DNA of 62,889 nt, the filler included, from Folioceros fuciformis (Eukaryota), in NCBI GenBank assembly GCA_049999805.1. It is 11 parts of 11 records of this genome, joined end to end, with 100 filler letters (N's around TTAATTAATTAA, not from the genome) between each part and the next. Parts side by side here need not be neighbours in the genome. Positions count along the whole stretch, not along the records: positions 33,353 to 42,796 come from JBNGIO010005196.1; 10 more parts are not named here. One strand, written 5' to 3'. Position 1 is the stretch's first letter. The number at the start of each line of letters is the position of its first letter. Under the pieces are notes generated by a model, which saw only the letters and a program-made list of their open reading frames with translations, searched no databases and was not told the DNA's origin. Both the position numbers and the translations under genes were made by a program. Of the stretch, positions 6,975 through 55,838 are shown piece after piece.

Positions 6975-7074
6975 NNNNNNNNNNNNNNNNNNNNNNNNNN
7001 NNNNNNNNNNNNNNNNNNTTAATTAATTAANNNNNNNNNNNNNNNNNNNNNNNNNNNNNNNNNNNNNNNNNNNN
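6975..7074. other. Artificial contig-joining linker (N-run, TTAATTAATTAA, N-run)
   Basis: The same 100-nt six-frame-stop linker occurs at 16220, 21594, 25718, 29869, 33253, 42797, 46632, 55739 and 61296. Plain 100-N gaps occur at 7653, 10474 and 11674. Confidence 0.97.
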
Positions 7075-16219: not shown

Positions 16220-16319
16220 NNNNNNNNNNNNNNNNNNNNNNNNNNNNNNNNNNNNNNNNNNNNTTAATTAATTAANNNNNNNNNNNNNNNNNNNNNNNNN
16301 NNNNNNNNNNNNNNNNNNN

Positions 16320-21593: not shown

Positions 21594-21693
21594 NNNNNNN
21601 NNNNNNNNNNNNNNNNNNNNNNNNNNNNNNNNNNNNNTTAATTAATTAANNNNNNNNNNNNNNNNNNNNNNNNNNNNNNNNNNNNNNNNNNNN

Positions 21694-25717: not shown

Positions 25718-26579
25718 NNNNNNNNNNNNNNNNNNNNNNNNNNNNNNNNNNNNNNNNNNNNTTAATTAATTAANNNNNNNNNNNNNNNNNNNNNNNNNNN
25801 NNNNNNNNNNNNNNNNNAGGCAACGCCCTCACCTCAGCGTGAACGGAGCACCCCAGCGGCCTATATAGAGTGCGGCCGGAGGCGCTGTACCCCGGCTTAG
25901 TGCATAGGCGGTGCACCGCGGAACACCCCAGCGGTGGGCACAGACGGTGCGCCCCCGCAGGGCGACCCTCCCATCGCATCCCCAAGTCGGAATTGTGCCT
26001 GGGCCGGGCATTAGGGCGCGTGTGCTCCGCACCATGGGAGGCCCTCCCCCCGCGCACGAGCGCGTGGGCGAAGGCCCCGGCCGAAACACCGTGGTGCGGC
26101 CAAAACGCCGTGGTGTGGCCGAAATGCCATGGTGCCCCCTCCCCGAGGGACGCGCCGCACGTAGCCCCGCACCCCGCGGCACGCCCGCACGGGGGGCCGC
26201 GCCTCGGCGGAACGGGGAGGCCTCCTCACCCCTCACTTATTTTTTTTCAATAAATACATCGTCGTCGCAGACCAGGACTTGAACACACAACCTCGTAATC
26301 CAGGAGACCCACCACAATACCAACACATTCTGGTTGAAAATATAATGTGTTCATTTGGATATATTTATTAGCGAATAGATAGAAATAGGGGGGAGGGGGG
26401 GGGTGGGAATTTAGCCGGAGTTAGGCATAACCTTTTTTAGTTATTTCCGTCCTCCAGCACCACTCTCCCATTTCTCCTGCCCTCTAAACATAATCAGGTT
26501 CTTATGCCACTGAACCCATCTTGAGGGGGATCACGTAGGTACAACGTCGTAGTCGTAAGCCTACTTAGGTTAAGTTTTC

Positions 26580-28401
26580 ATGCTTACAACGGCACAGTTG
26601 AACAGCCTAATTACTAGTTTCCAAAACTTGAACCTTCTTCCCCACACTCCTCCTGCCCTCATGGCGACAACAAGTTCACCTATATTTACTTCAGAACTTA
26701 GAGAGAAGGACAAGTTCAAAGGAGATGGCTACCCCACCTGGCGCGTAAGGATGAAGACCACTTTGCTAGCACGCGGAGTGTGGGGCACGGTGGACGGATC
26801 ATGTAAGAAGCCGGATCCAGCAGCCACACCCGCACCTACTCCTGCAGAAATTGCCAAGTGGGACCAGTACAATGCCATAGCGGTTGCAGTTCTTATCAGT
26901 GGACTCGATGCAGATCTTGTCCCAGACGTTGAGTTCTACAACTCGGCCAATGAGATCTGGGGCCACTTGGAGAAGACATACAAGGTCCAAAACTTAATGA
27001 CACTCTGTGCAGTTAGACAAGAGTTTTTCGCCTTGAAGATGAAGGAAGGGGACAAGGTGGCAGCGCACACCAGCAGGTTCCGACACCTTAGAGCCCAGCT
27101 CACCTCGCTGACTGGAGAGAAGATGTCGAAGGTAGATGCTGTGGCGCAATTCCTCACAACCCTTCCTCCCTCCTACCAAACCTTTGTCACTAGTCAGAAC
27201 GCCCCCCTGCAAGCTGCTTCTACTGCCTCTGGTGCAACAACGACCATCACCTTGGAAGAAGTGATCGGTGCGTTGTTCCAGGAGGAGCAAAGTCGCGCCT
27301 TCTCATCTGACGTTGTTAAGAACAAGATGGACAAGGCGTTAGCAGCCAACTTCCGCAGAGGCCAACCACCTAAGGACAGAGGAGCACCTCCCCACCAGGT
27401 CAGCGTGGAGAGACGTCCTCTACTAGACGCCCAGGTAACTGCAATTGGTGCGGCATACCTGGACATTGGGCACGCGAGTGCCGTAAGAAAAAGGCGGGTG
27501 AGCCCCAGAAGCTACCCACACCGGCTGCAAGTGTCGCAGTCAAGGACGCATCGAAGGCACAGGTGAAGATACTCACGGTCTGCTTGTCGAGCTCCGTCAA
27601 TGACGACGGCTGTTGGTACCTCGACTCTAGAGCTACCTCACACATCTGCAAGGACAGAGGTCTGTTCACCACCTTGACACTTGCCTCCGGGAGTGACAAG
27701 GTCATGTTAGGCGACGAGCAGAGCAGAACTAGCTTGTGGATACAAGGCAAAGGTACCTGTATCTTCAAACTCAATGATGGCTCATATCTTTTGCTGGAAG
27801 ACGTCCTCTTCGTGCCCACCATGGCAAAGAACTTGATGTCCATGAGCCAGCTCATGCGCCTTCAGCAATTCAACTTGCGAGCAGATCATGAGCACTGCTG
27901 CTTCTACAGGCGTAGCTCCCCAGACACCTGTGTGTTCAAGGGACTACCTATCCAGGATCTGTACAGGCTCAACATCACCTGTCTGCCAGCAGCTGCACAA
28001 CACTCAGCTCGCTCTACTGGAGCCCCTCAGGCTTTTCTGGCTGAGAGGGGGCGGACTCAACACTTCGTCCTCCAGCCAGATACCCCGCCGCATACCACGT
28101 ACCAGCGGCTACAGGCGGATCAAGCTCAAAGCTCCACCTAATCACCTGGCAGCCCGCTAGTCCCCTCGTCCCCGGATCAATTATCCTAAATAGGGTATTA
28201 AGTTTAAGAGGGGGTGTTAGAGATAATAAGTAAACGTTAATATTATTTAGTGTCCTAATTATCTAGGCCATAGGGTTTAGCGAAGAGTCACCAGCGAAGA
28301 GTCACTTTTCCTAGTATTTAAACACCCATGCCTTATGGCCTTGTTAACCTAATTCTTTTGTTCTTAATTACAAGCTTCAGCTCTCGCTACACTTTCTAAC
28401 A
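26580..28401 (+). mobile_element. Short Copia-derived element: gag + protease, PPT, 187-bp 3' LTR (28215-28401)
   Basis: Gag LREKDKFKGDGYPTWRVRM, frameshifted knuckle CNWCGIPGHWAREC, protease WYLDSRATSH. PPT TTAAGAGGGGG then TGTTAGA...TCTAACA. No integrase, RT or RNaseH. Confidence 0.85.
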
Positions 28402-30279
28402 GTCGGGGTGATTCAGTTGCAAAGGGAAGGTTGGCTCAAGAAAGTGGCAATAGGGTGACACAGGAGGTGGGGAACGGGTCGGAGCTCTCTCGTCTCAGGA
28501 GGAATCCTTGGCACAGACCCTGGCCGCGAATTCACACCACCTTGGTCTCCTGGAAGTGGGCTTCGTACTCCCACCCTTGCAGCCTGGTGGGGAGGTTGAT
28601 GAAGAGTCGGTGGTGTGGTCTGTCTGGGATCCTAGCACTAAGGTTGGGAGGCGCAGCGTGGCGAGTGTTTCGGGTGTGTGGCAAAAACCCCTTTCCCCCG
28701 GGACATCGGACAGATTCAACATGCGACTTCAAGACTGTAGGATTTCTTCGGTGACGGATGTTTCGAGGTGTGGAGAGGTGATGCATAAATCGTCCACTGC
28801 GCTGAAGGGGAGGGATGAGAAGCCTGTGGAGAGCGAGGTCGTTGTGGTGGGGATCCATCGGGCAGCGGATCCCAAGGCCAGGAGGCGGGTGTGAATCCTT
28901 TACAGACGAATAAGCAGGATGGTTTTTCCACTCCCCTAGACGAAGATCGCTCTCGGGAGGCGGCGGGCTCGCTGCCCGACAACACACATCATGCGAACAC
29001 TCTGGCAAGTCCTGAGTCAGACACTGCTGCTAGGGAGGATGACGAGAGGGGGGTGGAGTGCGAGTCAGAATGTGGCTGGGTCAGTCAGGAGGAGCTGGGT
29101 GTGCAGACGGTCCCTATTGTTGGAGTCCACCAGGCAGGGCGAACACAGGATGGGAAGCTGAATTTGGTAGCTTCCACGCCTACCATTGGTAAGAAGGAGC
29201 AATCTCCTTCCGGGCTTGGGGCAGCTAAAGTGGATCGTCTGGAGGAAGACTATGCCAATAAGCAAGTATCGGGTTCGGAGGTGGGGAGCGGCCATCTTGA
29301 AGCCATTCGGGTTGCTGGGTCGCCATCGATGCTCACAGTTTCAGTGACTGAGGGAATTTTAGATACGCTCTCGAGGTCTAATACAGGATCCACCCTGGTT
29401 TTTGATGAGCAGACGACATCGACTCCTCAAATGCTTGGTGATAGGATGGCTCCTGCAAGCTTGATCTAGGGGATTGGCCCTGTATTTTCTGCTCAAGTAG
29501 TTGGGGAGGAAGTGGGAAAGGAATCCCTCAAGGAGCCTCATGGGCCTCCGTTGCCTAATTCTACGTGGGAGATCCCGGCATTCCACAACTTGCCGGTTCC
29601 GGGTCCTCAGTCTCTCGGGCTCGGGGGTGACCCCGGCCTTGTTGGAACCACAGGGCCAAGTGCCGGAATGGCTTCTAGGCGTGATGCTTGGAAAGTGGTA
29701 TCAACGTCTGTGTTCACTACAGGCGCACGGAGGAGCATGGAGATGGGTGTGGGGAAGAGGACTCGTGTCTCAGAAGATCTGTTATTAGGTAATCAGCGGC
29801 AAGACCAGATAGCTATGGCCAAGGCAAGGAAGGCATTGAACAAGGTTGTTCAACGCCTGGCCTTGGATNNNNNNNNNNNNNNNNNNNNNNNNNNNNNNNN
29901 NNNNNNNNNNNNTTAATTAATTAANNNNNNNNNNNNNNNNNNNNNNNNNNNNNNNNNNNNNNNNNNNNTACAAGAATGTAGCCAGAGCGTGTGTCTCTCT
30001 CTGCCATGTTATTCACGCGATGCTAGCATTGCATGCCAGCCATTGCCACTACCACGCGATTCGCTCCATGTTGCAGTAAGGGAGAGTGTGCTCTCCACTT
30101 TTTTTTTCTTCTAAAAAAAAGAAAAAAGAAAAAAAGAGAAAAGAAAAAAGGAAAGCAACGATTGCGAGGAGGAAGGGGATGGATCCCCGTCTATCTGTTG
30201 TGGAAAGAGACAAGACTCGAGCCCTAGACCTCCTCTGAAATGCGCGACTTAGGACCCACAAGACCACACTCGGTTCCTG

Positions 30280-30599: not shown

Positions 30600-30965
30600 T
30601 GAGCTAGGGCGCCACCGCCGCCGGTAGCTAGGGCACAGCCGCCGAGCTAGGGCACCAAGGTGTGTCTAGGGCACCGCCGCCGCCACCGGCTAGGGCGCCG
30701 GTTAGGGCGCAGCCGCTGGCTAGAGTTAAGGCACCAGCATGGCGCCACTCAGGCGCCAACGAGGCGCCAGCGAGGAGCCACCCGGGGGCCAACGAGGTGC
30801 CTGCAAGACGCCACCCGGGCGCCAACGAGGCACCAGCGAGGCGCCATTGGGGCGCCAGCGAGACGCCACCTGGGCCCCATCTGGGCGCCCGTGGGGCGAC
30901 ACCCGGACGGCAACAAGGCGCAAGCCGGGCGACACCTAGACGGCAGCCGTTCGCCAAGGGGACGC
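30600..30965 (+). repeat. GC-rich degenerate tandem repeats in the leader of an LTR element
   Basis: Repeated CTAGGGC(A/G)CCGCCG and GGCGCCAACGAGGCGCCAGCGA-like units. Confidence 0.6.
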
Positions 30966-33252: not shown

Positions 33253-33352
33253 NNNNNNNNNNNNNNNNNNNNNNNNNNNNNNNNNNNNNNNNNNNNTTAA
33301 TTAATTAANNNNNNNNNNNNNNNNNNNNNNNNNNNNNNNNNNNNNNNNNNNN

Positions 33353-33891
33353 CATCCATAGCATGTTCCCACTTTGTGTCTCCAATAGCTTCTTCAAAGC
33401 TTCTTGGTTCCACATCCTGTACAACCTTTGCCATATAGGCATGGTGCCTAGCTACATAGCTATCATAGGTCAACCGCTGTATTGGAACCTTCTGCCTTCC
33501 AGATCTCCGTGGGATTGAACCACTTCCAGGGGCTAATTGAACCTCTTTTGCACCAGGTGTTTCGATTTTTGGTACACCGAATTCCTCATCCAAGCTCTGC
33601 TCAGAGTCGCTTGAATCATCCGCACCTGCACTTAGGTCTGGTATCTTTGAATCCTGGACTTTTTCCTTCCCTTTGCGAGACACAGCTGTGGAGCTCGTAG
33701 GACTCACACTACCTCGCAACCTGCCACTCCATGGATTCTGAACATTTGTCGAGTTTGATGACGCTTGCGGTCCACTCAACACTTGTGATTGTTGACCTGC
33801 ATTGCTTGTTACCTCAGTTTCAAGCACATCAGCTACACTACTTCCTTGTACTTCAAAGTACCAGCTACCCATTTCATCAAAGACTACGTCT
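33353..33891 (-). pseudogene. Copia integrase C-terminus/linker fragment, interrupted at the (SR)DVVFDE motif
   Basis: DVVFDEMGSW...EPRSFEEAIGDTKWEHAMD. Homology stops at 33891, where TGTCGTGAAA begins. Confidence 0.85.
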
Positions 33892-35566
33892 TGTCGTGAA
33901 ATTGTGGCAAAAATGGACTTATAGTAGAGCATCATGGTGAATGTCATAGTTTAGTGGAATTCAGTTGATTAGATAATAGGTGATTAAACTAACTCAACCT
34001 AAATTAGGTAAATGGCTAAAATACTAGCCATGGCTACTTGCCCACTAGAAGCACGTGGGCTCATACAGCCCATGGAAAACTGCTTGGAGGGGCACCACAC
34101 ATAAAAACAAAACACAGCGAGGAAAAAGGTAGTTGTCGAAGTCGCTCATGAGAGGAACCACCGGACGACCTAAACCTTTTTTTTGCTGTTCACTAGCCGT
34201 CTATGAAAGGAAGAGCTATGCAGATTGAGGGTGTAAGGGAGATGGTGGCATCCCGCTAGTGACTTACCAACTCTGGGCAGCCCGACGAGGGCAGTCCCTT
34301 TTTGTAGCTTTACAACACGGAGTGAGCTATGGCGCATGTGAGCAGCCTAACATCTTACTTCGACAACTACCTTTGTCAGGCAATGAGGGCACGGGCGAGG
34401 AGCTCTTAGAGCGCAGCCAAGCAGCTACAGCAAGGCAGCATTTGTGGAGCACCATCCAGACCCGTTTGTGTGAAGTCTGTCATTTTCCCTTTGCATTGCT
34501 AGGGATTTAGGGTTTGTAGGGACTCTAGGGGCGCGGCCAGACATGTGCATTCAGGCAGCAGCCTTGGAGAATCCCTCTCTTCCTTTGTAGCAGCCGTGAG
34601 TCTGGAATGTGCATGCTCAGTGTTGTAGCAACTACCTTTCTACTCGCAGCAGCTACATGTTGATCCAAGGCTCTATAGACAGGGCTTAGGAGAGCTGGCA
34701 GCTAAGGCACCGCCAAGAGACCACATCGAGGCAGCCCCAGCAAGTCGCTCAGCATTTGACGCACTTAAGCCTCTGGTTTGGGGTTTGAGGGTGTGGAAGT
34801 CAAACTTCAGGAGGACATAACGGCCGCAATTCCGCTTGTCTGCCTTAGATCTACATACCAACAGATTTGTCGTGAAGAGGCGAACATTTTGGAAGAGGGA
34901 CATGGCTGATCATGGATGCTTTGGGGAGGGGTAGATTTCTTGTTCCCTCAGTACTCCAAGAAAGTTGTGTTTCTTTGCTTTCTGATCACAGTTACACCTG
35001 CCCAGCAAGCCTAGGGAATTGAGATTTTCCAGGGGTAGGATTTTCCCAAACTAGGATTATCTGGATAGGGAGTAGCTGAGCTTTGCTCACACTCATTCAG
35101 ACTGTGGGGGGCAGCTGTAAGCTACGACCAGACGCGGCATGAAGGGAGGCCACCATCAGATTATTTGGGAGGAGCTAACCCTCATTTCTTGCATGCGTGG
35201 TTTGTTGGAACCACATGTTTAGGGGCTCGTTTTGCCTTTGAGAACAGGGGTTTGATTTGGAGGCCAGCAACAGCCAGTAGAAGCCTGAAAGTACTGTGGG
35301 TACAGCTGAAGCAGTGTGTGGTGTCCCAGCGAGAGTCACTTCCCTAGGCCCGGTGTTGTCAATTGCAGCACAGCACCTCACTGTTTTTGCCAAGCACCAG
35401 CTGTAGGTGTAACAGGGGTGCATGGGGTATGCAACCAGATCAGCAAGAGGCCAGCCTACGTTACCGATTGAGGAGTCGAGACATTCCTATCAGGGTATCA
35501 CCGGAGCGTGCACAACGGAGGAGAAGATGGGCAGCTCGACGACGCCAACTTGCAAGTTGAGAAGAC

Positions 35567-38500
35567 TTGAGAGAGGACTTGGAACCAGCAACATCCGTTG
35601 GGCAACCCAGCTGGTCACCCCTCTTAGACTTGGGCAAGATTGTTGTGCTAACTAGCTCAAATTTAGGGGGTCAGCTAGTTTGTGACGAGGAACCTGAACA
35701 ACAAGGGTCTCTCTATTCACAGCAATCATTTGTGAGGTCACAGCAGACACATCCAGGGTTTGCTGGGTCTGTCCTTGGTGTAGGGCAAGGCCTGGGTGAC
35801 TTGTCTGAAAGGTCAGACACCATGGAGGGTGGTTCATCAGGGTTTAGGCCTGAGAAATTCTCAGGCAGACCAAGCACCCAATCCTTAAGGGACTTCCGCT
35901 TGTTCATCAATGCAGTCATCAGCAGGGTGAAGTTCAAACATGGTGCTGCCTACAACCACCAGTACATGTTTGAACAGTTGTCCAGCTACTTAGGAGATGA
36001 GGCATTGGATTTGTACGAGGCTCACCAGGCTGAGCTATCGGGCACAATTGCCACTCCTAACCCAGCCCATCATTCGGCTCTACAGTTGGCATATAATGCC
36101 AAACTGGCAGCAGCCATTAATGACCATCAGGCTGAGATTGTAGCCAAGACCATCTCCGCCACCACACCACCTCCAACGGTGGTGAATTTGACACTAGCAG
36201 AGCGGGCTACTGCCACAACTGGTGTGCAAGAGTTTCTACACACTTGCAAGTACCTGAACCCAGTGGAGGAGTTCCTAGCTATTTTGGAGAGGGCATTCCC
36301 ACTGAAGACCCCAGAGAAAATTGCAGAACTTGCTGCCTTTGCTCGCAAAAAGGGGGAGACAGTCCAGATGTGCTTCAGGAGGCTACAGAAATTGAGGGAA
36401 GGTACAGGGATGTTAACAAATCAGGAAGCAGCGCAAAGGTTTTTGACTGCACTTGAAGGAGACCCGTTGTTTCATTTCCAGCTGGTTACATCCTTGGTGG
36501 ACAAATATGGGGACAAGTATACTTTGGAGCAAGTGCATGAAGAAGCTGAGAAGAAGGAGGTAGCCTTTTCGGCCTATGCCTCTCGGCATTCCAAGGCCTT
36601 CACGCACTACCAGTCCATGTTCTCTAGCAAGGGGGCAGCTAACACAGGTGCAGGAGCCAAGGCTGGTCAGATTAAGCCAATTAAGGTAGCTTCAGCAGCA
36701 GCTCCAGCGGCAGCAGTGGTAGCCATGTGTAACCATTGTGGCAGCCCTGAGCACATGTCCCCTGCATGCAAGTGTCCTCCAGAGGGACTCTACTGCACCC
36801 ATTGCCAAAAGAATGGACACGTGGTTACTGTGTGCTTCCAAAAGCACCCCGAACGAAGATACCAGAAGATTGGTACCGTAGGGTCTGCAGGAGCCACAAT
36901 TGCTAGTGTGGAAGCAGGAGGAACGAGGAGCGTTGTTGGGTTGTCCCGCAGTAAGCAGCAGCGTGACAAGGCCAAGGCTAAGGCAGCCGCCACTGCTGAC
37001 AAGGTCAGCTCCCTTGAGGCTTCCATGGCTGCCATGACAGCTCAACTTGGAGTCTTGACAGCCAACCTGTCCAGCATCACCGGCTCTTCCAAACCAGCCA
37101 ATGTGGTGAAGTTGGTACCAGGACCAGAGGATGAGGATTATGGCCCAGCACACCAAGTATGTATGGTTGACAGAATTGGTGAGAGCAGCATGGAGGTGGA
37201 GTTGCCAGCCACATGGGTGGGGCAGAATTTACAGGTGGTCATGGGAACAACAGCACCTGCCTTAGGGCCCATCACCAGGAATCGAGGGCCTAGGGCTACC
37301 ATGCCAAAGTCCTTTGCCCCGCTGCCACCGGGGTCTGCAATTCCGGTACGAGGCCAGGAGCACTCAACGCTGCGTGTGGAACAGCTGCCCACGAGTAGAA
37401 CACCTGGCCATAGCATGCCAACACCAGAGCATGTGTATCTCTTACCCCAAACCACCACAGTCACACAACTGGCTGCCAAGCTAACTCAGGTGCCAGTTTT
37501 CACACTGCAGGACATGGGCATCACGACCAGCAGGCTGAAGGAAGTTCTTCAAACTGCTGAAGCCACGGCTGCATCTGCTGACCCTAGCCTGGGTACAACG
37601 TACACTTCACAATGGGTGCTGCCAATAGCGATGTCACACTCTACAGGTGGGCAGACAGCACCAAGTCACTGCAATGGCTCTTACACTGTACAGCTAGCTG
37701 AGGGAGTTGACAGCCAACCGCGAGTGCAGTCCACCAATCGACTGCAAGCTCGTGTCAGCAATGCAGTTGTTGACAATCGTTGTGGGCACGTCACAATCAA
37801 TGGGTATGCACCCAGAGTGGTGTTGCTAGACACGGGAGCCCAACCAGTACTCGTTGGGAAGATTCTAGCTGCAAGGTTGCATCTTCAGGGTGATGCATTG
37901 CATACCTCGCCTTGGAACATCAGGACGGCATCCGGGGCTATTGAACCAGTCTGTGGTGAGACAGTCCAACCCCTGGACATCACCTTGAACTCGGGCACGC
38001 CAGATGCCATGACATTGTCCTTGCCCTGCCTGGTAACCACAGCCACCAACTATGATTTGCTGTTGGGGCAAGAGTTCCTCTTTCCACCAGGAGTTGGTGT
38101 GGATAACTGGACTGAGCAAGCCTTCTATAGGCCTGACTGGAAGCAAGGAGGTTGTCGCATTGCACATCTGCCATTAGATTTGCATGGCCAGGTGGAGGTT
38201 GATGTAGCCACTTTGGTGAAAAGCCCGGCTGTAGTTGGTATCAAAAGTAGCAATGTGGTGGAGCTTGTCCAAGACACATACCAAGTGGACAAGCATCTAG
38301 AGACCAATGTTGCAGAGGCCCAAGTGAGGTGTACTAGTTTGCAGCAAGCTCTAGTTCAGCCTGACTGTCCAAAGCAGGCAGAGGCATTGCTGACCAAGGC
38401 ACAAGAGCAGGTCAGCAAGGTGCAACAATTGCTAGAGGCCGGGACCCTATCATCTTGTCCCACATCTTATGTGGACAATACTGTCATCATATGGGCACCG

Positions 38501-41500
38501 GCTGCGCTAGCCCTTACAGTCGTTGAACTGTTTGGTGGTATTTGTACCGGGTTAGAAGCTTTGCTCTTGACCGGTTTGAGCATTCAAAGGTACCTTTACT
38601 GTGACAAAGACCCCGTTGCCAGGCAAATTGCTGCATTTCGGCTGCAGGGTCTACAACATCGTTTCCCACAGCAATTGTCAGCTGAGGCTTTGGCTAATAC
38701 ATTCACGTCCTTACCTCATGACGTCCAGTATATACAGCAGGGCCACATCCAAGCCTTGGGCCCCATCGACATGGTCATAGCTGGCTGGGAATGCCAAGGA
38801 TTCTCTCAAGCTGGGGTAGGTGCAGGGTTGACAAATCCACGTTCTGGTCTGTTTAGAGATCTCCAACAAATCTTGGCATGGGCACAAGATAGTAACTCTC
38901 AATGTGCATACCTGCTCGAGAACACACCAGCCCAGTTTGATACCCGGCCACAGGTGCAGCAGGATATGGCCATTGTGCGACATTTTGCAGGGCCACCATT
39001 CCTCATGGATGCTGTGCAGGTGGGTAGCTATGCCCACAGGCTTCGTAACTACTGGACCAATTTGGTCCCTGTCTCCGTGTTGGACTTGGCTCTCTGGAAC
39101 ACTAGCAGGGATCCAGGGCTGCAACTTTGTACTGTATTGGAGAACTACCACCAGCCACGACCTGTGGTGGCCAGTGAGAAAGCCCCTTGGTTCAAGACCA
39201 ACATTCCAGGTCAGCCAAGGCAGACGTTGCCCACGCTGGTCAGCTTTCCGGGTTCATTTGCTTACAGAGGAGAAGGACCTGGCTTATTATTGAATACTGA
39301 AACGCAACGGTGGGAAGAACCAACAGTTGAGGAGCGAGAGCGACTCATGGGTTTTCAAACCCATAGTACAGCGGCCCCCACTGTCACCAATCGGCAGCGC
39401 AAGGGCACTCTAGGACGAGCCATGGACCTCCATGCCATCACATGGTTGGTGAGTTTGTGCCTTGCCTTTCAGCTGCACACTCAGGTCACTCCCATGCTAC
39501 TCCCAGGCTTGTTTGCTAGCATCTGCCCTGGAGATGCTGTTCACCTCCCATTCCCAGGATACACACAGCTGCCTTTTTGGCTAGATGCTGGGGGGGGGGA
39601 GTACGCAGTATTGGCATCACGTACTGTTTACTCAGCATCTGATCAAGCCAAGGCAGAAAAGGAGGATCCAGGAGCTACACCCAAGCTGTCTGTTGTTAAT
39701 TTCCCGTGGAAAATGGGCTCAGAACTCAGTCTGAAGCAACAGGACCGCATTCGTAACTTGCTGCTTAGGTACAGGGACTGTTTTGCCTTTTCCATGCATG
39801 AGCTCAAGAGGTGCAATGTCACAACCTTTCGCATCAACCTTACCACCCAAGAGCCTGTATACAGGCGACAGTATAGGCTGAGCAAGACGGAATGGGACAT
39901 GGTGGATGCAAGATGCAAGGAGCTGTATGAGGCGAACCTAATACGTCCCTCTAACAGTGACTACGCTGCTGCCACCGTGATGCCACCCAAAAAGGACAGT
40001 CAGGGTTTGTGGACTGAGAAGAGGATGTGTGGCGACTATAGGCCCATCAATGCAGTAACTGCCCAAGATCGGTACCCAATGCCAACACCAGAGGAGATCT
40101 TTGACCGTCTTGGACAGTCTATGTTCTTCTCCACGCTGGACCTGCGACAAGGGTTTAACCAGGTCCCAGTGGCAGCTGAAGATATCAAGAAGACAGCCTT
40201 CCATGGTTCTCAACAGCTATGGGAATGGCTAGTGATGCCCTTTGGATTCAAGAATGCGCCAGTGACCTTTCAGCGCATCATGGACATAGTACTAGCTGGA
40301 GCCGGCTATCTCATGTGCTACATTGATGATGTGCTAGTCCACAGCATGGACTTCAAGGATCATTTGGTACACCTGGAAGACCTGTTTATAAGATTACGGA
40401 AGGCACAACTCACGTGCCACCCAGCCAAGTGTGAGTTTGGCATGAGCACTGTGGCGTATTTGGGTCACAGAATTGTCCCCAATGGTGTCACCCCACATGC
40501 TGCCAAGGTTCAGGCAATTATGCAGGTTAAGGAACCGACCACCGTATCAGCCCTGCGTTCATTTCTAGGGTTATGCAATTACTATCGAGTATACATACCC
40601 AATTTCAGCAGGATTGCCAAGCCTCTTAATGATCTGCTGCGCAAGGATGTAGAGTGGACATGGGCAGAGCAGGCACAACAAGCTTTTGACACCTTAAAGC
40701 TGGAGCTAACAGTTGCACCAATGTTGGCCAGACCCAATTTTAACAAGCCCTTTGTAGTTCACACAGATTGGAGTAGTCTAGGGCTAGGGGCTGTGTTGGC
40801 TCAACAGGATGAAGCAGGTTGTGAGCGTGTGGTTGCTTACGCCTCGCGTAGCAACAATCGAGCTGAAGCCAACTATAGCAGCTACGAGGGTGAATGCCTC
40901 GCTGCTGTGTGGGCAGTGTGCCACTTCAGACCATATTTATATGGTCAGAAGTTCACACTCGTGACAGACCATCAACCACTCAAGTGGCTGATGACCAACA
41001 CCAAGCTCAGTGGCAAACTCGCACGTTGGGCCATGATCCTTCAAGATTACGAATTCCAGGTTGAACATCGGCCGGGAGTGAAGCACCAGAATGCTGATAC
41101 CTTGTCACGAAATCCTGACAGCAGTTGTGTGGATACCACTGGAGCTCGCCAAGATGGAGAGTACAGCACAATGCTTGCCGTATCGGCTCTGGTGGCCATG
41201 ACTTGCTTGGGACAGGTGCCTGTAGGTGCAGCTCAGCAATCCTCCAAGGATATTTGGGAGGATCCAGCTACCCTTCAGTATGTGCAGACAGGTAGAGAGG
41301 ACCCCACTTGGACCACGGCCACAAGGGAACGAGTTCACCAACGGGCTACCAAGTATTGTTGGCGGGACGGACATCTCATCCGTCAACAGGCTCAAGGAGT
41401 GGAGCGATTGGTACCCCCACCAGCAGATCGTGCTGCCCTCATCAAAAGGGTGCATGATGACATGGGTCATTTTGGGGTCAAACGCACCTACAGCCTGTTG

Positions 41501-42721
41501 ACTCCCTATTTCTACTGGAATCGAATGCATGAACAAGTGAAGGAACGAGTAGCCTGTTGCGAGCAATGCGACCGTGTCAAGGCTTCCTTCACCATGCAGC
41601 ACCCAGAGCTGCACCCTTTGCCCATCATGGGTTTATTCTTCAGATGGTCATGCGACCTGATGGGTGAGCTCCCGCAGTCTCCACGAGGCAACCTGTATGC
41701 GATGATCATGATGGAACACTTCAGCAAGTGGGTGGAGGTAGTGGCCCTGCCAGACAAGACCTCTAGGAGTACCTCACAAGCCTTCCTACAATGTGTGCTC
41801 AGTAGGTTTGGTGGCTGCGCAGAGTGTCTCACAGATCAGGGTTCTGAGTTTCGAGGAGAATTCCAGGATCTAATGGATGCAGCCCTTATTGACCACAGGA
41901 GAACTAGCCGGGACCACCCGCAGGCTGATGGCTTAGCCGAGCGCATGGTCCAGACTATGAAGAAGGGGCTTCGCAAGCTGTGTCTCCGAGAACCCAAAAC
42001 AGATTGGGATCTCTTGCTTCCATATATTGCAATGGGTTACCGCATGAGCAAGCATGCTGCCCTTGCCCATTTTTCCCCTTACTTCCTCTTGTTTGGCAGA
42101 GAACCAATTCCACCTAGTTCTATAGCCAAACAAATGCTAGAAGTTGTCAAGCTGGATGATGCAGCTACATGGGCACGTGTGATAGGTAACAGGGCAGCCT
42201 TGTTCAAACAGGCCATGCCCATGGCAATGGCTAACTTGCACATTGCCCAGCATAGGGATACCCTTCGTTATGCACACACTAGGGGAGGCAGTTTTAGGCC
42301 CAAGCTCAGGAAGTTCCAGGTAGGAGACTTTGTTTACCTGCAGAGGCAGACCTCAGATACCCTGGACACTTCCAGCAGTCGGCATGTGTTGCGGATTCAG
42401 GAGGTCAAGCCTAATGGCATCCTGGTATTGCAAGGCTCAGATGGTCGGATCACCACTGACCACACCAAGAATTGCGCACCTTGCCACTTGCCCAATCTTG
42501 ATCCTTCTATTGTCACAGCAGATTGGATTCCACCAACGGACTATCCTTGTCAGGTTTGTCAACGCACAGATGATGCTGACCTCATGTTACTTTGTGATGG
42601 CTGCAATGGGGGTTTCCACCTTTTCTGCTTACAGCCACCACTTACCCATGTACCGGAGCAACTTTGGTATTGTCCCAAGTGCCAAACGGACACAGCAGGT
42701 GTGACCAGCCTAGGAGTGTAG
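35567..42721 (+). CDS. Gypsy polyprotein Gag-CCHC2-protease-C5 DNA methyltransferase-RT-RNaseH-integrase-PHD (first ATG 35822)
   Basis: Gag PEKFSG; knuckles CNHCGSPEHMSPAC and CTHCQKNGHVVTVC (36728-36835); protease LLDTGA (DTG at 37829); DNMT motifs (38513-39470); RT MCGDYRPIN, MPFGFKNAP, YIDD (40319); RNaseH HTDWS, TDHQPL; integrase HHCC, CDLMG, TDQGSEF, ADGLAER; PHD. Gypsy domain order, no stops. Confidence 0.96.
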   Translation: MREDLEPATSVGQPSWSPLLDLGKIVVLTSSNLGGQLVCDEEPEQQGSLYSQQSFVRSQQTHPGFAGSVLGVGQGLGDLSERSDTMEGGSSGFRPEKFSGRPSTQSLRDFRLFINAVISRVKFKHGAAYNHQYMFEQLSSYLGDEALDLYEAHQAELSGTIATPNPAHHSALQLAYNAKLAAAINDHQAEIVAKTISATTPPPTVVNLTLAERATATTGVQEFLHTCKYLNPVEEFLAILERAFPLKTPEKIAELAAFARKKGETVQMCFRRLQKLREGTGMLTNQEAAQRFLTALEGDPLFHFQLVTSLVDKYGDKYTLEQVHEEAEKKEVAFSAYASRHSKAFTHYQSMFSSKGAANTGAGAKAGQIKPIKVASAAAPAAAVVAMCNHCGSPEHMSPACKCPPEGLYCTHCQKNGHVVTVCFQKHPERRYQKIGTVGSAGATIASVEAGGTRSVVGLSRSKQQRDKAKAKAAATADKVSSLEASMAAMTAQLGVLTANLSSITGSSKPANVVKLVPGPEDEDYGPAHQVCMVDRIGESSMEVELPATWVGQNLQVVMGTTAPALGPITRNRGPRATMPKSFAPLPPGSAIPVRGQEHSTLRVEQLPTSRTPGHSMPTPEHVYLLPQTTTVTQLAAKLTQVPVFTLQDMGITTSRLKEVLQTAEATAASADPSLGTTYTSQWVLPIAMSHSTGGQTAPSHCNGSYTVQLAEGVDSQPRVQSTNRLQARVSNAVVDNRCGHVTINGYAPRVVLLDTGAQPVLVGKILAARLHLQGDALHTSPWNIRTASGAIEPVCGETVQPLDITLNSGTPDAMTLSLPCLVTTATNYDLLLGQEFLFPPGVGVDNWTEQAFYRPDWKQGGCRIAHLPLDLHGQVEVDVATLVKSPAVVGIKSSNVVELVQDTYQVDKHLETNVAEAQVRCTSLQQALVQPDCPKQAEALLTKAQEQVSKVQQLLEAGTLSSCPTSYVDNTVIIWAPAALALTVVELFGGICTGLEALLLTGLSIQRYLYCDKDPVARQIAAFRLQGLQHRFPQQLSAEALANTFTSLPHDVQYIQQGHIQALGPIDMVIAGWECQGFSQAGVGAGLTNPRSGLFRDLQQILAWAQDSNSQCAYLLENTPAQFDTRPQVQQDMAIVRHFAGPPFLMDAVQVGSYAHRLRNYWTNLVPVSVLDLALWNTSRDPGLQLCTVLENYHQPRPVVASEKAPWFKTNIPGQPRQTLPTLVSFPGSFAYRGEGPGLLLNTETQRWEEPTVEERERLMGFQTHSTAAPTVTNRQRKGTLGRAMDLHAITWLVSLCLAFQLHTQVTPMLLPGLFASICPGDAVHLPFPGYTQLPFWLDAGGGEYAVLASRTVYSASDQAKAEKEDPGATPKLSVVNFPWKMGSELSLKQQDRIRNLLLRYRDCFAFSMHELKRCNVTTFRINLTTQEPVYRRQYRLSKTEWDMVDARCKELYEANLIRPSNSDYAAATVMPPKKDSQGLWTEKRMCGDYRPINAVTAQDRYPMPTPEEIFDRLGQSMFFSTLDLRQGFNQVPVAAEDIKKTAFHGSQQLWEWLVMPFGFKNAPVTFQRIMDIVLAGAGYLMCYIDDVLVHSMDFKDHLVHLEDLFIRLRKAQLTCHPAKCEFGMSTVAYLGHRIVPNGVTPHAAKVQAIMQVKEPTTVSALRSFLGLCNYYRVYIPNFSRIAKPLNDLLRKDVEWTWAEQAQQAFDTLKLELTVAPMLARPNFNKPFVVHTDWSSLGLGAVLAQQDEAGCERVVAYASRSNNRAEANYSSYEGECLAAVWAVCHFRPYLYGQKFTLVTDHQPLKWLMTNTKLSGKLARWAMILQDYEFQVEHRPGVKHQNADTLSRNPDSSCVDTTGARQDGEYSTMLAVSALVAMTCLGQVPVGAAQQSSKDIWEDPATLQYVQTGREDPTWTTATRERVHQRATKYCWRDGHLIRQQAQGVERLVPPPADRAALIKRVHDDMGHFGVKRTYSLLTPYFYWNRMHEQVKERVACCEQCDRVKASFTMQHPELHPLPIMGLFFRWSCDLMGELPQSPRGNLYAMIMMEHFSKWVEVVALPDKTSRSTSQAFLQCVLSRFGGCAECLTDQGSEFRGEFQDLMDAALIDHRRTSRDHPQADGLAERMVQTMKKGLRKLCLREPKTDWDLLLPYIAMGYRMSKHAALAHFSPYFLLFGREPIPPSSIAKQMLEVVKLDDAATWARVIGNRAALFKQAMPMAMANLHIAQHRDTLRYAHTRGGSFRPKLRKFQVGDFVYLQRQTSDTLDTSSSRHVLRIQEVKPNGILVLQGSDGRITTDHTKNCAPCHLPNLDPSIVTADWIPPTDYPCQVCQRTDDADLMLLCDGCNGGFHLFCLQPPLTHVPEQLWYCPKCQTDTAGVTSLGV
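38513..39470 (+). other. C5 cytosine DNA methyltransferase domain, DNMT3/DRM-like, within the polyprotein
   Basis: Motif I VVELFGGICTG; HDVQYIQQGHIQALGPIDMVIAG; motif IV GWECQGFS; VI YLLEN; VIII AHRLRNYWTNL; IX EERERLMGF; X RKGTLGRAM. Canonical, non-permuted order. Confidence 0.92.
42548..42682 (+). other. C4HC3 PHD finger at the integrase C-terminus
   Basis: CQVC...LLCDGC...FHLFC...PPL..VP...WYCPKC, with all eight Zn ligands. Confidence 0.93.
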
Positions 42722-42896
42722 CTCTTGTCGTGCTCTTTCATGCTTTCAGCCCGTCCATCAGCTGGGGGGGGAAGGCATGGACAATCTTTTTGTTCTNNNN
42801 NNNNNNNNNNNNNNNNNNNNNNNNNNNNNNNNNNNNNNNNTTAATTAATTAANNNNNNNNNNNNNNNNNNNNNNNNNNNNNNNNNNNNNNNNNNNN

Positions 42897-45800
42897 CTTG
42901 TTTTAACCTCCTTTGAGCATGGCGGGGGTGACATCTCAACAGGCCCTTCTTGCTTCATACCCATGTCTTCACAAAGCTGCCTTTCCCACTCAGCCTCCTT
43001 AGTGGCTTCGGTGAGTGCCTTGTACTCAGACTCTGTGGAAGACAGGGAGATGGCTGCTAGTTTTCTACATTACCAGTTAACTACAGAGGAGTTGGCCAGA
43101 AAACAATAAGCTGATATACTTTTTCGGGTGTCTGCATCCGAAGCCCAATTTGCATCTACATAACAAGTTAGCTGCAAATGCTTCTTCCCGCTTGGCATAT
43201 AGCAAAGGCCATAATTAGGTGTACCCTTAAGGTACCTCATAATTTGCTTGATAGCAACCCATTGATCCTTTCCATGGGATTTTAGAGAATTAGGCAACAA
43301 CGTTGACTGTGTTGGATATATCGGGTCTTGTCTGATTACTTAGGAACATGAGGGTGCCAACTACCATGCGATAAGGAATATTTTCCATCTCCTTTTTGTC
43401 TTCTTTAGATTGGGGACATGAGGCAAATGAGAGCTTGACTCCAAACGCACCTGGGGTGGTTGACGCCCTAGCATTCTCCATTATGAATCGTTTGAGCATA
43501 CCGGCTACATATCTACCTTGGTGAAGATAGATAGCACCTGTGGTATCCCTATGTACATGCATGCCAAGGATATACTTAACCTTTCCCAGGTCCTTCATCT
43601 CGAATTCCCCGCTGAGGTCAGCTTTTATCTTGTTGACCAGTTCAACGTTATTGCCTGGAATGACTAAGTCATCCACGTAGAGTGCAACTAGAACAAGTGA
43701 GCTATCCTTGCGTAGCATATAAATATTAGTATCTGCTTCACTTTGAACAAAACCTATTTTCTTAAGATATGAATCCATTCTCTCATACCATAGTCATGGG
43801 CTTTGCTTAAGGCCATAAATTGAGCGATTAAGTTTACACACCTTTTGTGAACAAGCCTTATGTTCGTAATCCTCGGGTTGATCCATGTAGATCTCTTCCT
43901 TAAGATGACCATAGAGAAAGGCTGTACACACATCAAGCTGATAGATCTCCAAGTTTAGTTTAGCACATAAAGCAAGGAGCATTCTAACTGATGCAGCCTT
44001 GACGACGGGTGAGTAGACCTTATCGCCTTGACAATCCACTCCCTCTTTCTGACTATATCCCTTAGCTACTAATCTCGCCTTGTAGCGAATTCGTGGCTCT
44101 ACTTCCTGGAACTTAGTTTTAAGAACCCATTTGCACTTGACAGTGGTCCTACCCTTAGGCAGACTAACCAAAGTCCAAGTGTTGTTTTTAAGTAATGAGT
44201 TGTACTCATCATCAATAGCCAGCTTCCATTTGGCTGCCTGGGGTCTCGAGTAAGCCTCCTGTAAGGTTAAAGGATCTCCCTCTGCAGCAGCAACACTTAA
44301 GGCATAGAGAGCATCCGAAGAATTAACATAGGTTAAGCTAGCTTGATTAAACTCAATATCAAATGGTTGTTCCTTCCAGAGATGCCTAGGCTGGCGCACA
44401 CGAGTAGGATATCTACGTTCAGGAGCAGCCGAGGGCCTAGGTGGGGATGGAGGAGTGACAGGTGCTTGAGGAATATCATGGGGCACCACGTGTTCAAAAT
44501 CAACGTGTTCAACATCACCTTGTTCCATACGTGGGTCCTCAGATACTACCTCGTGGTCTATTTCTATGTCCCCCTCTTGAGCAGGAATAGGTGACGTAGG
44601 AGCGGTGCACTTGGGGAGCAGGACCAGCAATAGGCAGCACTAGAACTGCTTGAGGGATAGGAGCCATAGGAGAAGGAGGAACACTAACAGTCGGAAAAGT
44701 AAAGGGCTGAACAAAGTGATCAATAGAAGTATCATCGGAAGAGCGAGGAGTGCTCGAGCCAGAGGAAGCACCAGCTTGCACGTCAAGAGGAGACTCAAAT
44801 GACGTCGCAAGAGCAGGTACTATCTTAGCTTCATGAACGGTGACAGTGCGGGCATAGATAGGAATCTGAGAGTCCAAGTCCACGAGCTTGTAGGCTTTGC
44901 GGTCATCGCCATAACCGACAAACACCAACTTGCGAGCACGAGCATCAAGCTTGTCGCGAAGCTGTGATGGGACAAGAGCATAGGCAGGGCAACCAAAAAC
45001 ACGAAGATGTGCAATTAAAGGCTTGCTCCCATGCCAACACTCATAAGGAGTACGGCCAGAAACCGACTTGGTGAGGACTCTGTTCTTAATATACACCGCA
45101 GTAGACACAGCCTCAGCCCAAAAGGACTTGGGCAGTTGGGACTGTGCCAGCATGGCACGAGCCATGGACATCAAATCGCCATTGGCCTTCTCGGCAACGC
45201 CGTTCTGCTCAAAAGTGTAGGGCACTGTAAACTGACGCAAGACACCATGCTGCTCGCAGAAGTCGCAAAACTGATGGTTGTTTAGTTCTCCCGCATTGTC
45301 GGAGCGAATACACCGAAGTTTATGGCCAGTCTGTAACTTAGCCATAGTAACAAAGGGTGAGAACACATTAAACGAGTCACTCTTAAGACGGATAGGAAAG
45401 GCAAACGTATATCGACTAAAGTCATCCACAACAGCCATAAAGTGATTTGCTACGCCTAAAGACGAGACAGGTAGAGGACCACATAAATCAACGTGGACCA
45501 AATCAAGAGGTGCCAAAGACCGACGAGCAGGAAGAGTAGGATAAGGGGAACTTCGCTGTTTAGCAAGGACACAAGCTTCGCAGAGAGGCTGTGTTGATGG
45601 AAGGTGAGGAAGTTTATCCCGATACAAGTCCTGTTGGGAGGTGGCAAGCAGTCGAGCAGGGTTGAGGTGCCCGAGTTGGCAATGCCACAAGAGAGTTGCA
45701 CCTGGATGCGAGCTCCTATGAGGCTGGTCTCCGTGAGAGGAAACCACCGTAGAGGCAGCCGCTGAAGTCACGGGCTTGCCTGAAAAGACATATGACGAGG

Positions 45801-45997
45801 ACGAGGACGACCTTTAGCAACAAAAACCCGAGGGTTTGAAGTCCGAGATAACAGACAGTCTCCAGGGCCAAAGTTGAGGCAAAAGGATCCGTCCCGCACG
45901 AGCTGTCTAACAGAGATAAGATTCTTGGCCATCTGGGGAACATGTAGCACATTAGTAAGAAACAGCAAGGAACCATCATCCAAAGTAAAGGATCTAA
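42897..45997 (-). pseudogene. Degenerate Copia pol (protease end-integrase-RT-RNaseH)
   Basis: NVLHVPQMAKNLISV, WHCQLGH, IRSDNAGE, QNGVAEK, LDVCTAFLYG, LYVDD, YVDANWA. Confidence 0.92.
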
Positions 45998-46631: not shown

Positions 46632-46731
46632 NNNNNNNNNNNNNNNNNNNNNNNNNNNNNNNNNNNNNNNNNNNNTTAATTAATTAANNNNNNNNNNNNN
46701 NNNNNNNNNNNNNNNNNNNNNNNNNNNNNNN

Positions 46732-46950: not shown

Positions 46951-47130
46951 TCAGGGAGCCGCACGGAATGTGCTTGAGGAGTGTTGTTTGAGGATCCGTG
47001 GTGGAAGCAGAGCCTGCAAGTGCCACATGCGCAGCAGCTGAAGATGCGGCGTCTTTCGGTGGATGACAGGGACTGGTAGTCTCTCGCGTCCCTGTGCTGG
47101 TACGGAAGGGGAGGAGTTTCGGGGAAGGGC

Positions 47131-48249
47131 GTGCGGCGATACCTGGCGGATCCCTCTGTTCCTCGTTCCTGCTCCTTGTATCGCGGCGTGGCAGGCGAGC
47201 TTGGCCCTGTCGGGCCTGGAGGATACCAAGTGGATGTGATGCGTGAAACAGTGAGCAAGCTGTGTGAGGAGGGTCGGCTCAAGGAGGCTGTTGAGGCTTT
47301 GGGAATTCTGGTGCAAGTAGGGTGGCACGTTTCCAAGTCCCTCTTGTATACGGTGCTCAGGGGGTGTGTTGTACAGAAGGATCTTCTTCTAGGGCGCCGT
47401 GTGCACGCTTTCACGGTTCAGAAGGGGTACCAGTCGGACACTTTCCTGGGCAACCACCTTCTGCGATTGAACGCTTCTCATGGCAGATTGCAGGACGCGA
47501 TGGATGTGTTCACCGTCGTTGCCAGTCCAGATGCCTTCATGTGGTCTTCCATAATTTCTGCGCATGTGAAACGGGGACTGCACAGGCAGGCTGTAGAGCT
47601 GTATCGTAGGATGCGCAGGTCGGGTGTGGAGCCCGATAGCCATGTTTTCGTGTCTGCCCTCCAGGCGTGTGCAAAGGGGGAAGATTTGATGGCTGTCCAG
47701 GAGCTGCATGCCGAAGTATTGGCCAGTGGGTTTGGGCGGGATTTGTTTGTTTGTAATTGCCTTGTGGATGTGTATGGGAAGTGTGGCAGGCTGCGAGAGG
47801 CTAGAAGGGTGTTTGACGGACTCGTTGAGAAGGACGTTGTGATGTGGACTACCATGATATCAGGGTACTCCCAGCAGGGCATGGGGCAGGAAGCACTTCT
47901 TGTCTACAGTGCTATGCTGGAAGGAGGCCTGGCTGTACCCAGCTCTGTGACTTATGTCTGCCTCCTGCAGGCATGTGCAAGTGTGGGCGACCCTGCTCTG
48001 GTGACGGGGAAGCAGCTCCATGAGCTAATCAGAGCACAAGGACATCTGGCTAATGTGTCTGTAGCCAATAGCTTGGTGAACATGTATGCGAAGTGTGGCA
48101 GCCTAGAGGATGCCCACAGATTGTTTTGTGAAATGGGTCAGAAAGGCGTGGTGACGTGGACTGCTCTAGTTGCAGGGTATTCCTTACAGGGCAAGGGCCA
48201 GGAGAGGTCAGACGTTATTTGGCAAACAAGCCTAAGGTGGTTGTCATAA
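47131..48249 (+). CDS. PLS-class pentatricopeptide repeat protein, C-terminally truncated (possible pseudogene)
   Basis: Repeats FMWSSIISAHV, CNCLVDVYGKCGRLREARRVFD, VMWTTMISGYSQQG, ANSLVNMYAKCGSLEDAHRLF, VTWTALVAGY. Homology ends mid-repeat at ~48204, with no E/DYW domain. The upstream in-frame ATG at 47044 is blocked by TAG at 47077. Confidence 0.88.
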   Translation: MRRYLADPSVPRSCSLYRGVAGELGPVGPGGYQVDVMRETVSKLCEEGRLKEAVEALGILVQVGWHVSKSLLYTVLRGCVVQKDLLLGRRVHAFTVQKGYQSDTFLGNHLLRLNASHGRLQDAMDVFTVVASPDAFMWSSIISAHVKRGLHRQAVELYRRMRRSGVEPDSHVFVSALQACAKGEDLMAVQELHAEVLASGFGRDLFVCNCLVDVYGKCGRLREARRVFDGLVEKDVVMWTTMISGYSQQGMGQEALLVYSAMLEGGLAVPSSVTYVCLLQACASVGDPALVTGKQLHELIRAQGHLANVSVANSLVNMYAKCGSLEDAHRLFCEMGQKGVVTWTALVAGYSLQGKGQERSDVIWQTSLRWLS

Positions 48250-55738: not shown

Positions 55739-55838
55739 NNNNNNNNNNNNNNNNNNNNNNNNNNNNNNNNNNNNNNNNNNNNTTAATTAATTAANNNNNN
55801 NNNNNNNNNNNNNNNNNNNNNNNNNNNNNNNNNNNNNN

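Follow-up and report, generated by a model that had tools for sequence, protein, structure and literature searches.

Retrotransposons that carry a cytosine methyltransferase of their own have been described by de Mendoza et al. (2018; PMC5890265), who reported KnitGypsy-Dnmt3 from the alga Klebsormidium nitens and further DNMT-bearing retrotransposons from Symbiodinium, and this bears out a precedent named in a preliminary description of the locus considered here. According to that paper, KnitGypsy-Dnmt3 has a Gypsy polyprotein frame that is free of introns and holds a DNMT3-related domain, unpermuted and with the key residues conserved, the architecture of its repeats resembles that of a DIRS element (legend to Fig. 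4), and the Ka/Ks of its methyltransferase lies under 0.2. A 2025 MBE paper and a 2026 preprint, in their available parts, cite transposon-borne DNMT3 for 'streptophytes' and dinoflagellates solely via the 2018 paper. Here we describe an element with the same kind of frame, domain and split repeats on a 9444-nt contig (JBNGIO010005196.1, positions 33353-42796) of a 62889-base window, the whole stretch of DNA analysed, from an assembly labelled Folioceros fuciformis (GCA_049999805.1). The likeness to KnitGypsy-Dnmt3 is drawn from its published description; the host here is probably a land plant, and the element here has a PHD finger, a domain that receives no mention in the available text of the 2018 paper. 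We are highly confident that the element belongs to the Gypsy-DNMT3 kind in identity and architecture, and consider it probable that identity, architecture and a land-plant host hold together. The element thus belongs to a large known kind and is not a new architecture, but its host group is probably new.

The polyprotein is encoded by a single frame on the plus strand, the strand of all features given below unless stated otherwise, which runs over 2386 codons from stop to stop (35561..42721). The preliminary description had called it at 35567-42721 with 2384 codons; the open frame stands and its limits are corrected. Judged from the translation, the first methionine, Met88 (35822), is the likely start. 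Two CCHC-like zinc knuckles mark Gag (36728..36835), where the Pfam zf-CCHC match is weak (E 0.36). They are followed by an aspartic protease (residues 744-840; 37790..38080; Pfam PF13975 28.8 bits, PF13650 28.7 bits) with its D-T-G motif at 37823-37843, a DNMT3-type C5 cytosine methyltransferase (residues 986-1296; 38516..39448), a reverse transcriptase (residues 1476-1638; 39986..40474; RVT_1 98.3 bits) with a Y-I-D-D motif at 40319-40339, and an RNase H (residues 1701-1830; 40661..41050; RT_RNaseH 133 bits, RT_RNaseH_2 118 bits). The integrase (41414..41944) comprises an HHCC zinc domain (residues 1952-2008; Integrase_H2C2 59.1 bits) and a DDE core (residues 2028-2119; rve 44.1 bits), and a PHD finger closes the frame (residues 2330-2374; 42548..42682; Pfam PHD 44.8-49.7 bits). 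The D-T-G, Y-I-D-D, HHCC and D,D,E motifs are all present, and the polyprotein is colinear with another protein, P0008, at 44% identity over 1721 columns. The Gypsy architecture with an unpermuted DNMT3-like methyltransferase in frame between protease and reverse transcriptase, as first proposed, is accordingly upheld by Pfam, PDB, profile and fold comparisons; the PHD finger, the split repeats and a glutamate in the Pro-Cys motif of the methyltransferase go beyond that proposal. The word 'intact' is borne out for the reading frame only, since the contig stops 25 nt into the 3' repeat B and the whole element is therefore not within the window.

The methyltransferase resembles the animal enzymes DNMT3A/B/C, which are its best match in sequence, profile and fold and share its motif order. 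A phmmer search against all PDB chains gave 29 distinct sequences at E <= 1, every one of them a DNMT3A, 3B or 3C (best 2.9e-10), and the DNMT3A strings that the preliminary description had quoted are found in that alignment. A family profile built from 50 members and searched against solved structures gave 57 matches, with DNMT3A at 9.6e-27, DNMT3B/C at ~1e-23, tobacco and Arabidopsis DRM at 2e-16 to 4e-12, M.HhaI at 2e-10 and DNMT2 at 2e-5; none of these 57 is a DNMT1 or a chromomethylase. The AlphaFold2 model of the domain has a predicted local distance difference test score (pLDDT) of 94.5 and a predicted template-modelling score (pTM) of 0.92. All Foldseek matches listed for it are DNMT3A/B/C, at ~20-22% identity in the fold alignments and with target-normalised template-modelling scores of 0.75-0.83 for chains holding the catalytic domain only, the best being DNA-bound DNMT3 catalytic domains. 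Measured against solved structures, DNMT3 is the group nearest to the domain, ahead of DRM, DNMT1, DNMT2 and bacterial enzymes. The Pfam check with PF00145 proposed earlier does return a match, but a marginal one confined to the motif IV stretch: the whole polyprotein scores 21.3 bits (residues 1056-1106), short of the cut-off of 22, whereas the domain taken by itself reaches 24.6 bits. The position given before for the methyltransferase, 38513-39470, holds with limits refined to those above.

Motifs I (38525-38551), IV (38780-38806), VI (38912-38926), VIII (39032-39061), IX (39332-39355) and X (39410-39427) start at residues 989, 1074, 1118, 1158, 1258 and 1284, in this order, and the domain is therefore, unlike DRM, not permuted. 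Motif IV holds Glu-Cys at residues 1077-1078, Cys1078 being the catalytic residue. The element differs from the animal enzymes in this glutamate, which replaces proline, in its placement within a retrotransposon polyprotein and in being without PWWP or ADD: neither companion domain has a Pfam match in the polyprotein, and the PHD finger is separated from the methyltransferase by 1000 residues, on the far side of the integrase. Host DNMT3 proteins, according to the available part of the 2025 MBE paper, are accompanied by PWWP and ADD in animals and by a domain of unknown function in land plants.

Searches with the methyltransferase part found 58 long proteins with E <= 0.001 (8000 candidates scored) and 55 matching shorter ones (7999 candidates scored), and an exhaustive search of cluster representatives returned 1882 at E <= 0.001, 719 at 1e-10 and 249 at 1e-30. 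With 249 cluster representatives at E <= 1e-30, the family is far larger than the readable literature says. When domain order was scored by placing the window's own domains on 243 proteins, 37 had the order seen here, Gag, protease, methyltransferase, reverse transcriptase, RNase H and integrase (type A), in 137 the methyltransferase followed RNase H and preceded the integrase (type B), and the remaining 69 were too short to be assigned. Type B is the commoner in databases (examples are P0007 and P0009-P0044). A PHD finger follows the integrase in 92 of the 117 integrase-reaching type-B proteins and in 1 of 8 type-A proteins. In a metagenome collection, 501 stretches encode a relative; the nearest 80 (L001-L080), which come from a handful of data sets with contigs of up to 131 kb, are all type A. 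Among these 80, the PHD finger is present in 36 and the full order from Gag to PHD in 25; the remaining ones are partial in length and agree with it, one of them showing the methyltransferase only, and no locus has another domain order. Eighteen long metagenome loci are decayed copies, with longest frames of 184-847 codons.

A quick maximum-likelihood tree of 88 methyltransferase domains, drawn up with 100 of the 134 full-length type-B rows and 30 of the 42 rows without assigned type left out, separates a type-A side (43 rows) from a type-B side (45 rows) with 99% support each. All type-B records with a name come from chlorophytes (Haematococcus, Chlamydomonas eustigma, Monoraphidium, Tetrabaena), and those of type A come from Closterium and two liverworts; the two domain placements track chlorophytes and streptophytes, respectively. 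Klebsormidium records are not among the matches of the methyltransferase protein searches. The chlorophyte type-B relatives share with the element a homologous methyltransferase (33-43% identity), the Glu/Pro-Cys motif and a PHD finger after the integrase, but their methyltransferase stands after RNase H and not before the reverse transcriptase. In the openly readable literature, with subscription journals and supplements outside this scope, we found no land-plant Gypsy-DNMT3, no PHD-bearing and no chlorophyte type-B case.

The catalytic residues were tallied over 162 typed relatives covering at least 80% of the domain (28 type A and 134 type B), the 42 relatives of neither assigned type being set aside. 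The residue before the catalytic cysteine is glutamate in 97 and proline in 49. The cysteine is retained in 159 relatives, with 26 of 28 in type A and 133 of 134 in type B, and the motif VI glutamate in 160 (27 of 28 and 133 of 134). Each arginine of motif VIII is kept in 23 of 28 type-A relatives, the other five being gaps, and in 132 and 133 of the 134 type-B relatives, respectively; for the first arginine this makes 155 of 162, with gaps accounting for 5 of the 7 misses.

The PHD finger occupies the place after the integrase where chromoviruses have a chromodomain. Its best PDB matches are the PHD1 of KDM5D, Lid and KDM5A/B, and the fingers of UHRF1/2, WSTF, BAZ2A/B, CHD4, PHF21A and AIRE (E 7e-16 to 3e-9), which we take to be readers of the histone H3 tail unmodified at Lys4 or Arg2. 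The trimethyl-Lys4 readers ING, BPTF and TAF3 are not among the 60 PDB matches listed.

The ends of the element depart from the textbook plan. At its 5' end lies a 465-nt repeat, A1 (33892..34356), which begins with TGTCGTG and which we divide into a putative U3 (33892-34124) and R-U5 (34125-34356), with a TATA-like box read from the sequence at 34101-34107; at the 3' end, the contig holds the first 25 nt of a different repeat, B1 (42772..42796), and ends. The continuation is seen in contigs from four sequencing runs (X1-X4) of one organism label, taken from three studies and aligned to the element's contig. In X1, B runs on for 87 nt past 42796 and then re-enters at 33892, where a further copy of A begins. 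X2 and X3 each have a contig in which 34356 is followed at once by 42772, at depths of 137.8 and 103.2, and the letters before 33892 differ among the run contigs. The B-to-A and A-to-B joints, taken with the differing 5' letters, are those that the layout A1-body-B1-A2-B2 predicts. Self-BLAST of the window found no second long terminal repeat (LTR), because the 3' repeats lie beyond the contig end.

The same layout recurs among related loci. Seven of the 17 with enough flank (six distinct, L070 and L072 being near-copies) have a pair of A repeats 8.6-9.9 kb apart and a pair of B repeats on either side of A2; plain LTRs occur in none of the 17, and ten are without any long repeats. By eye, A starts with TGTCATG and B ends with CACGACA in these loci, and in the runs B ends with an inverted word that matches the TGTCGTG start of A in the window. 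Four-bp target duplications at the A1 start and B2 end are perfect in four of five related loci (GGTC, CCAA, AACC, TTTT), and the fifth has one mismatch. Two nucleotides, variable between copies, separate B1 from A2, whereas B2 follows A2 without a gap. PAT-like and Ngaro elements of the DIRS order have split direct repeats of this A1-body-B1-A2-B2 type, but these use a tyrosine recombinase and here we find a DDE integrase, TG...CA ends and 4-bp target duplications; a tyrosine recombinase has no Pfam match in the polyprotein, which matches rve and Integrase_H2C2 instead. As for Ty3/Gypsy, the order of protease, reverse transcriptase, RNase H and integrase with an HHCC/DDE integrase is present, split repeats stand in place of two like LTRs, and target duplications at TG...CA ends are seen in the relatives only. 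The element thus fits neither the textbook LTR definition, on account of its split repeats, nor the DIRS definition, on account of its integrase and the missing tyrosine recombinase.

Signals for priming abut these repeats. Directly after A1, at offset 0, an 18-nt segment (34357..34374) is complementary at 18 of 18 positions to a segment inside A1 (34125..34142) that would be the 5' end of the transcript, forming a putative primer binding site of the self-priming type. None of 429 control 12-mers reaches 12/12 complementarity, and the minimum-free-energy and centroid RNA folds pair both segments (z = -3.1). In relatives of differing sequence the pairing is kept, at 12/12 in L003 and 11/12 in L036 and L073 (controls as good: 0, 0 and 1 of 429); it is weaker in L070 and L035 (10/12) and in L014 (9/12, not above controls). 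Upstream of the paired segment stands TATAAAA in L003, at 26-32 nt, and an A-rich TATA-like word in the window, at 18-24 nt. Reverse transcription primed by the transcript's own 5' end is the mode of Tf1. Tf1 and sushi-type Ty3/Gypsy elements likewise have a single Gag-Pol frame and a primer site complementary to their own 5' end and not to a tRNA, but ordinary LTRs, a chromodomain and no methyltransferase. On the 3' side, a G8 purine tract (42764..42771) lies directly before B1, and a G-rich run does so in four of five relatives (L003, L014, L035, L036); from its position, the tract is likely the plus-strand primer.

The self-priming site and the G tract mark the A end and the B start and predict a linear cDNA that carries B-A repeats at either end. 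The integrated form, A-body-B-A-B, is a circular permutation of this predicted cDNA, cut at the inverted repeat between B and A. We considered two simpler accounts. An LTR composed of B plus A with ordinary ends is ruled out by the TG...CA ends and target duplications at the A start and B end and by the flank in the window, which joins at the A start. A two-LTR circle opened at either internal site would yield A-B-A-body-B equally often, and this form is seen in 0 of 17 loci, seven of which have detectable repeats.

Several copies of different ages are present, as seen from the spread of the 324 X2 pieces on the contig, of which 135 have at least 99% identity, 104 have 95-99% and 85 have 90-95%. 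An in-frame stop just 5' of the frame (35558-35560) is missing from the copies of all four runs, where the frame is open upstream to ~35348 with an earlier methionine. The X1 contig also has an extra copy of an 84-nt stretch (34809-34892), with ~75 other letters on each side, so the leader varies in length between copies. The CpG observed/expected ratio of the element, 0.36, is the lowest of 12 segments compared. Among transitions between this copy and the run copies, with contexts drawn from the 38 best-supported differences of a longer table, 14 of 25 are in CHG (22.6% expected, p = 3e-4) and 5 of 25 in CG (9.3% expected). The low CpG ratio and the CHG and CG excess indicate that the copies have been methylated over time, without indicating the agent. 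Many of the CHG transitions read CAG in the runs and CAA in this copy, a footprint of deaminated CHG methylation.

Could the methyltransferase owe its place between protease and reverse transcriptase to an assembler that joined a host DNMT3 gene to a retrotransposon? Only the fragmented state of the assembly favors this, and its probability is negligible. A single 9251-nt X1 contig spans 34891-42796 with 18 differences and holds the whole frame, and X2 contigs cross both methyltransferase junctions (38240-38727 and 39184-39742); X3 bridges the second (~39600), and no X3 piece over the first is among those listed, which stand beside 588 further pieces. Read depth is even across the methyltransferase, the proteins P0002 and P0008 from other sources share the domain order, and the metagenome loci, as said above, show no other. 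At the level of contigs, the chimera at ~38500 or ~39600 that the preliminary description named as refuting is thus not seen. A second alternative keeps the architecture as real and assigns the contig to an alga living on or in the sequenced plant. The window does consist of short contigs of a fragmented assembly, the element's contig carries no host gene, and green algae have many members of the family (Closterium, Haematococcus, Chlamydomonas eustigma, Monoraphidium). In the tree, however, the window's domain shares an 8-row clade (99% support) with a Calypogeia fissa protein, from a leafy liverwort, while Closterium and the chlorophytes fall elsewhere. This protein, with protease and methyltransferase, is the nearest named relative (52% identity) and is encoded on a 66.6-Mb, chromosome-scale record. 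The contig's sampled words are present at 0.88, 0.79, 0.78 and 0.14 in the four runs, so that three runs of one label carry the element at 0.78-0.88, and at 0.05 in a fifth run, from a second species of one of the studies; depth is high and even. The CHG-transition excess is as expected with streptophyte chromomethylase-type methylation, yet such a pattern fits Klebsormidium too. On another contig of the window, a PLS-class PPR frame of 389 codons (47080-48246) has E and DYW-type companions among its matches, and all organism names among its 120 hits listed are land plants, with the lycophyte Diphasiastrum first. We therefore regard an algal source as quite improbable and a land-plant host as very likely, given the liverwort nearest relative, the PPR frame matching land plants only and the four runs under one label. 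The claim of an uncharacterised land-plant element holds as to its probable host and in that we found no printed case, but liverwort copies already sit unremarked in public annotation. For example, Marchantia polymorpha MARPO_0008s0049 (P0331; 961 residues) aligns to polyprotein residues 736-1319 at 34% identity and keeps all methyltransferase motifs, with Pro-Cys in motif IV; it may be no more than a fragment, or else a gene that has been domesticated. A published MpDNMT3 name for it could not be matched, the old identifier being absent from the papers searched and the MpDNMT3b paper giving another identifier.

With the land-plant element as the preferred reading, the remaining alternative concerns its enzyme: the methyltransferase fold may be kept for RNA cytosine methylation, for nucleic-acid binding or as a particle scaffold, with no methylation of DNA. 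The KnitGypsy-Dnmt3 domain gave no methylation in a yeast assay, the only published test of the family, and RNA methylation was raised by de Mendoza et al. for a LINE-borne DNMT (PMC5890265, available in part). In the same available text, the authors call the yeast assay inconclusive because human DNMT3B also failed in it. The glutamate in place of proline in the Pro-Cys motif, found in this copy and in most of the typed relatives, could point the same way, but proline and glutamate alternate before the cysteine within both clades, and the position therefore tolerates both. Moreover, the catalytic cysteine, the motif VI glutamate and the motif VIII Arg-x-Arg persist in nearly all 162 relatives at 35-50% identity, and a mere scaffold would need none of them. 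The best fold matches are bound to DNA, and the RNA enzyme DNMT2 scores far lower, at 2e-5 or weaker. We consider such another role unlikely and somewhat favor an active DNA methyltransferase; that its role is the self-methylation of new copies is possible, though at somewhat less than even chances.

We propose the following cycle for the element. Transcription would start at ~34125, the 5' end of the RNA would fold back and prime the minus strand as in Tf1, and the G tract would prime the plus strand. The protease would cleave the polyprotein, the PHD finger would tether the integrase to chromatin with the H3 tail unmodified at Lys4, and the DNMT3-type domain would act as a de novo cytosine methyltransferase, either on the freshly made DNA of the element or where it inserts. 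A new copy would then arrive already bearing host-like methylation. In host DNMT3A, the same pairing of an H3 reader with a methylating enzyme is found in the ADD and catalytic domains. That the protease releases the methyltransferase and that cDNA is methylated, both put forward in the preliminary description, stay conjectural, the assay of the Klebsormidium domain in yeast having shown no methylation and being termed inconclusive. A bolder reading, of a still-mobile land-plant Gypsy element with two parts of de novo methylation, a DNMT3-type enzyme and an integrase PHD finger reading H3 with unmethylated Lys4, that integrates by way of a circular or joined-end intermediate opened at an internal inverted repeat, is offered tentatively and is rather doubtful.

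A number of observations weigh against the main reading, that of an autonomous Gypsy-DNMT3 element of a land plant with the cycle proposed above. This copy has glutamate for the canonical proline before its catalytic cysteine and passes Pfam PF00145 only marginally, and the one assay in the family was negative. The ligand of the PHD finger is a presumption from what the named PDB matches bind. In-frame differences between this copy and the run copies, 27 in a partial list, comprise 16 replacement and 11 silent changes, which suggests only mild constraint between recent copies. The window contains neither the 3' A2-B2 repeats of this copy nor its target duplication, and the primer sites predict a linear cDNA with B-A repeats, at odds with the integrated order A-body-B-A-B. 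Finally, the contig's sole flank is another repeat, with no host gene, and no listed run contig bridges 33891/33892, making the linkage to a plant genome indirect.

Cytosine methylation is the main means by which plants silence transposons, and a transposon with its own de novo methyltransferase inverts this usual relation. If the bolder reading is true, the element picks silent chromatin and methylates itself on arrival, it is a hybrid of LTR and DIRS-like replication, and plant genes like the Marchantia protease-methyltransferase record could be domesticated offshoots. The Gypsy-DNMT3 kind was previously known from one streptophyte alga, in which activity was not demonstrable; an open-frame copy with near-identical sister copies in a probable land plant provides a second system, nearer to well-understood plant methylation. 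It could be used to study the function of the enzyme, the steering of integration by the PHD finger and the handling of split repeats by a DDE integrase, and its cis-acting and accessory features open the family to tests that were harder to make until now.

The window joins 11 contigs of the fragmented assembly by N44-TTAATTAATTAA-N44 spacers (6975-7074, 16220-16319, 21594-21693, 25718-25817, 29869-29968, 33253-33352, 42797-42896, 46632-46731, 55739-55838 and 61296-61395), and neighborhood across these points is meaningless since the contigs are separate. An apparent 104-nt repeat family (at 33250, 42794 and 46629) is this spacer and not biology. The flank of the element (33353..33891, minus strand) belongs to a different and far more abundant repeat, of which it is a fragment with an open frame; depth in X2 and X3 is ~3500-6300 there, against ~200-500 for the element, and the contigs of all four runs break at 33891/33892. 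It has no Pfam family and no tblastn match on the other contigs of the window, and is presumably Copia-like, going solely by motifs at the integrase-reverse transcriptase linker. An Rfam scan of the window gave no matches. Copia-type Gag, integrase and RVT_2 fragments lie on five other contigs, at 4587-6599 and 43794-45813 on the minus strand and at 8876-9787, 21696-24299 (split by one stop) and 26574-27566 on the plus strand. A GC-rich tandem array with an 11-nt period, in an 88-nt register with 14 overlapping copies, is found at 30719-30960.

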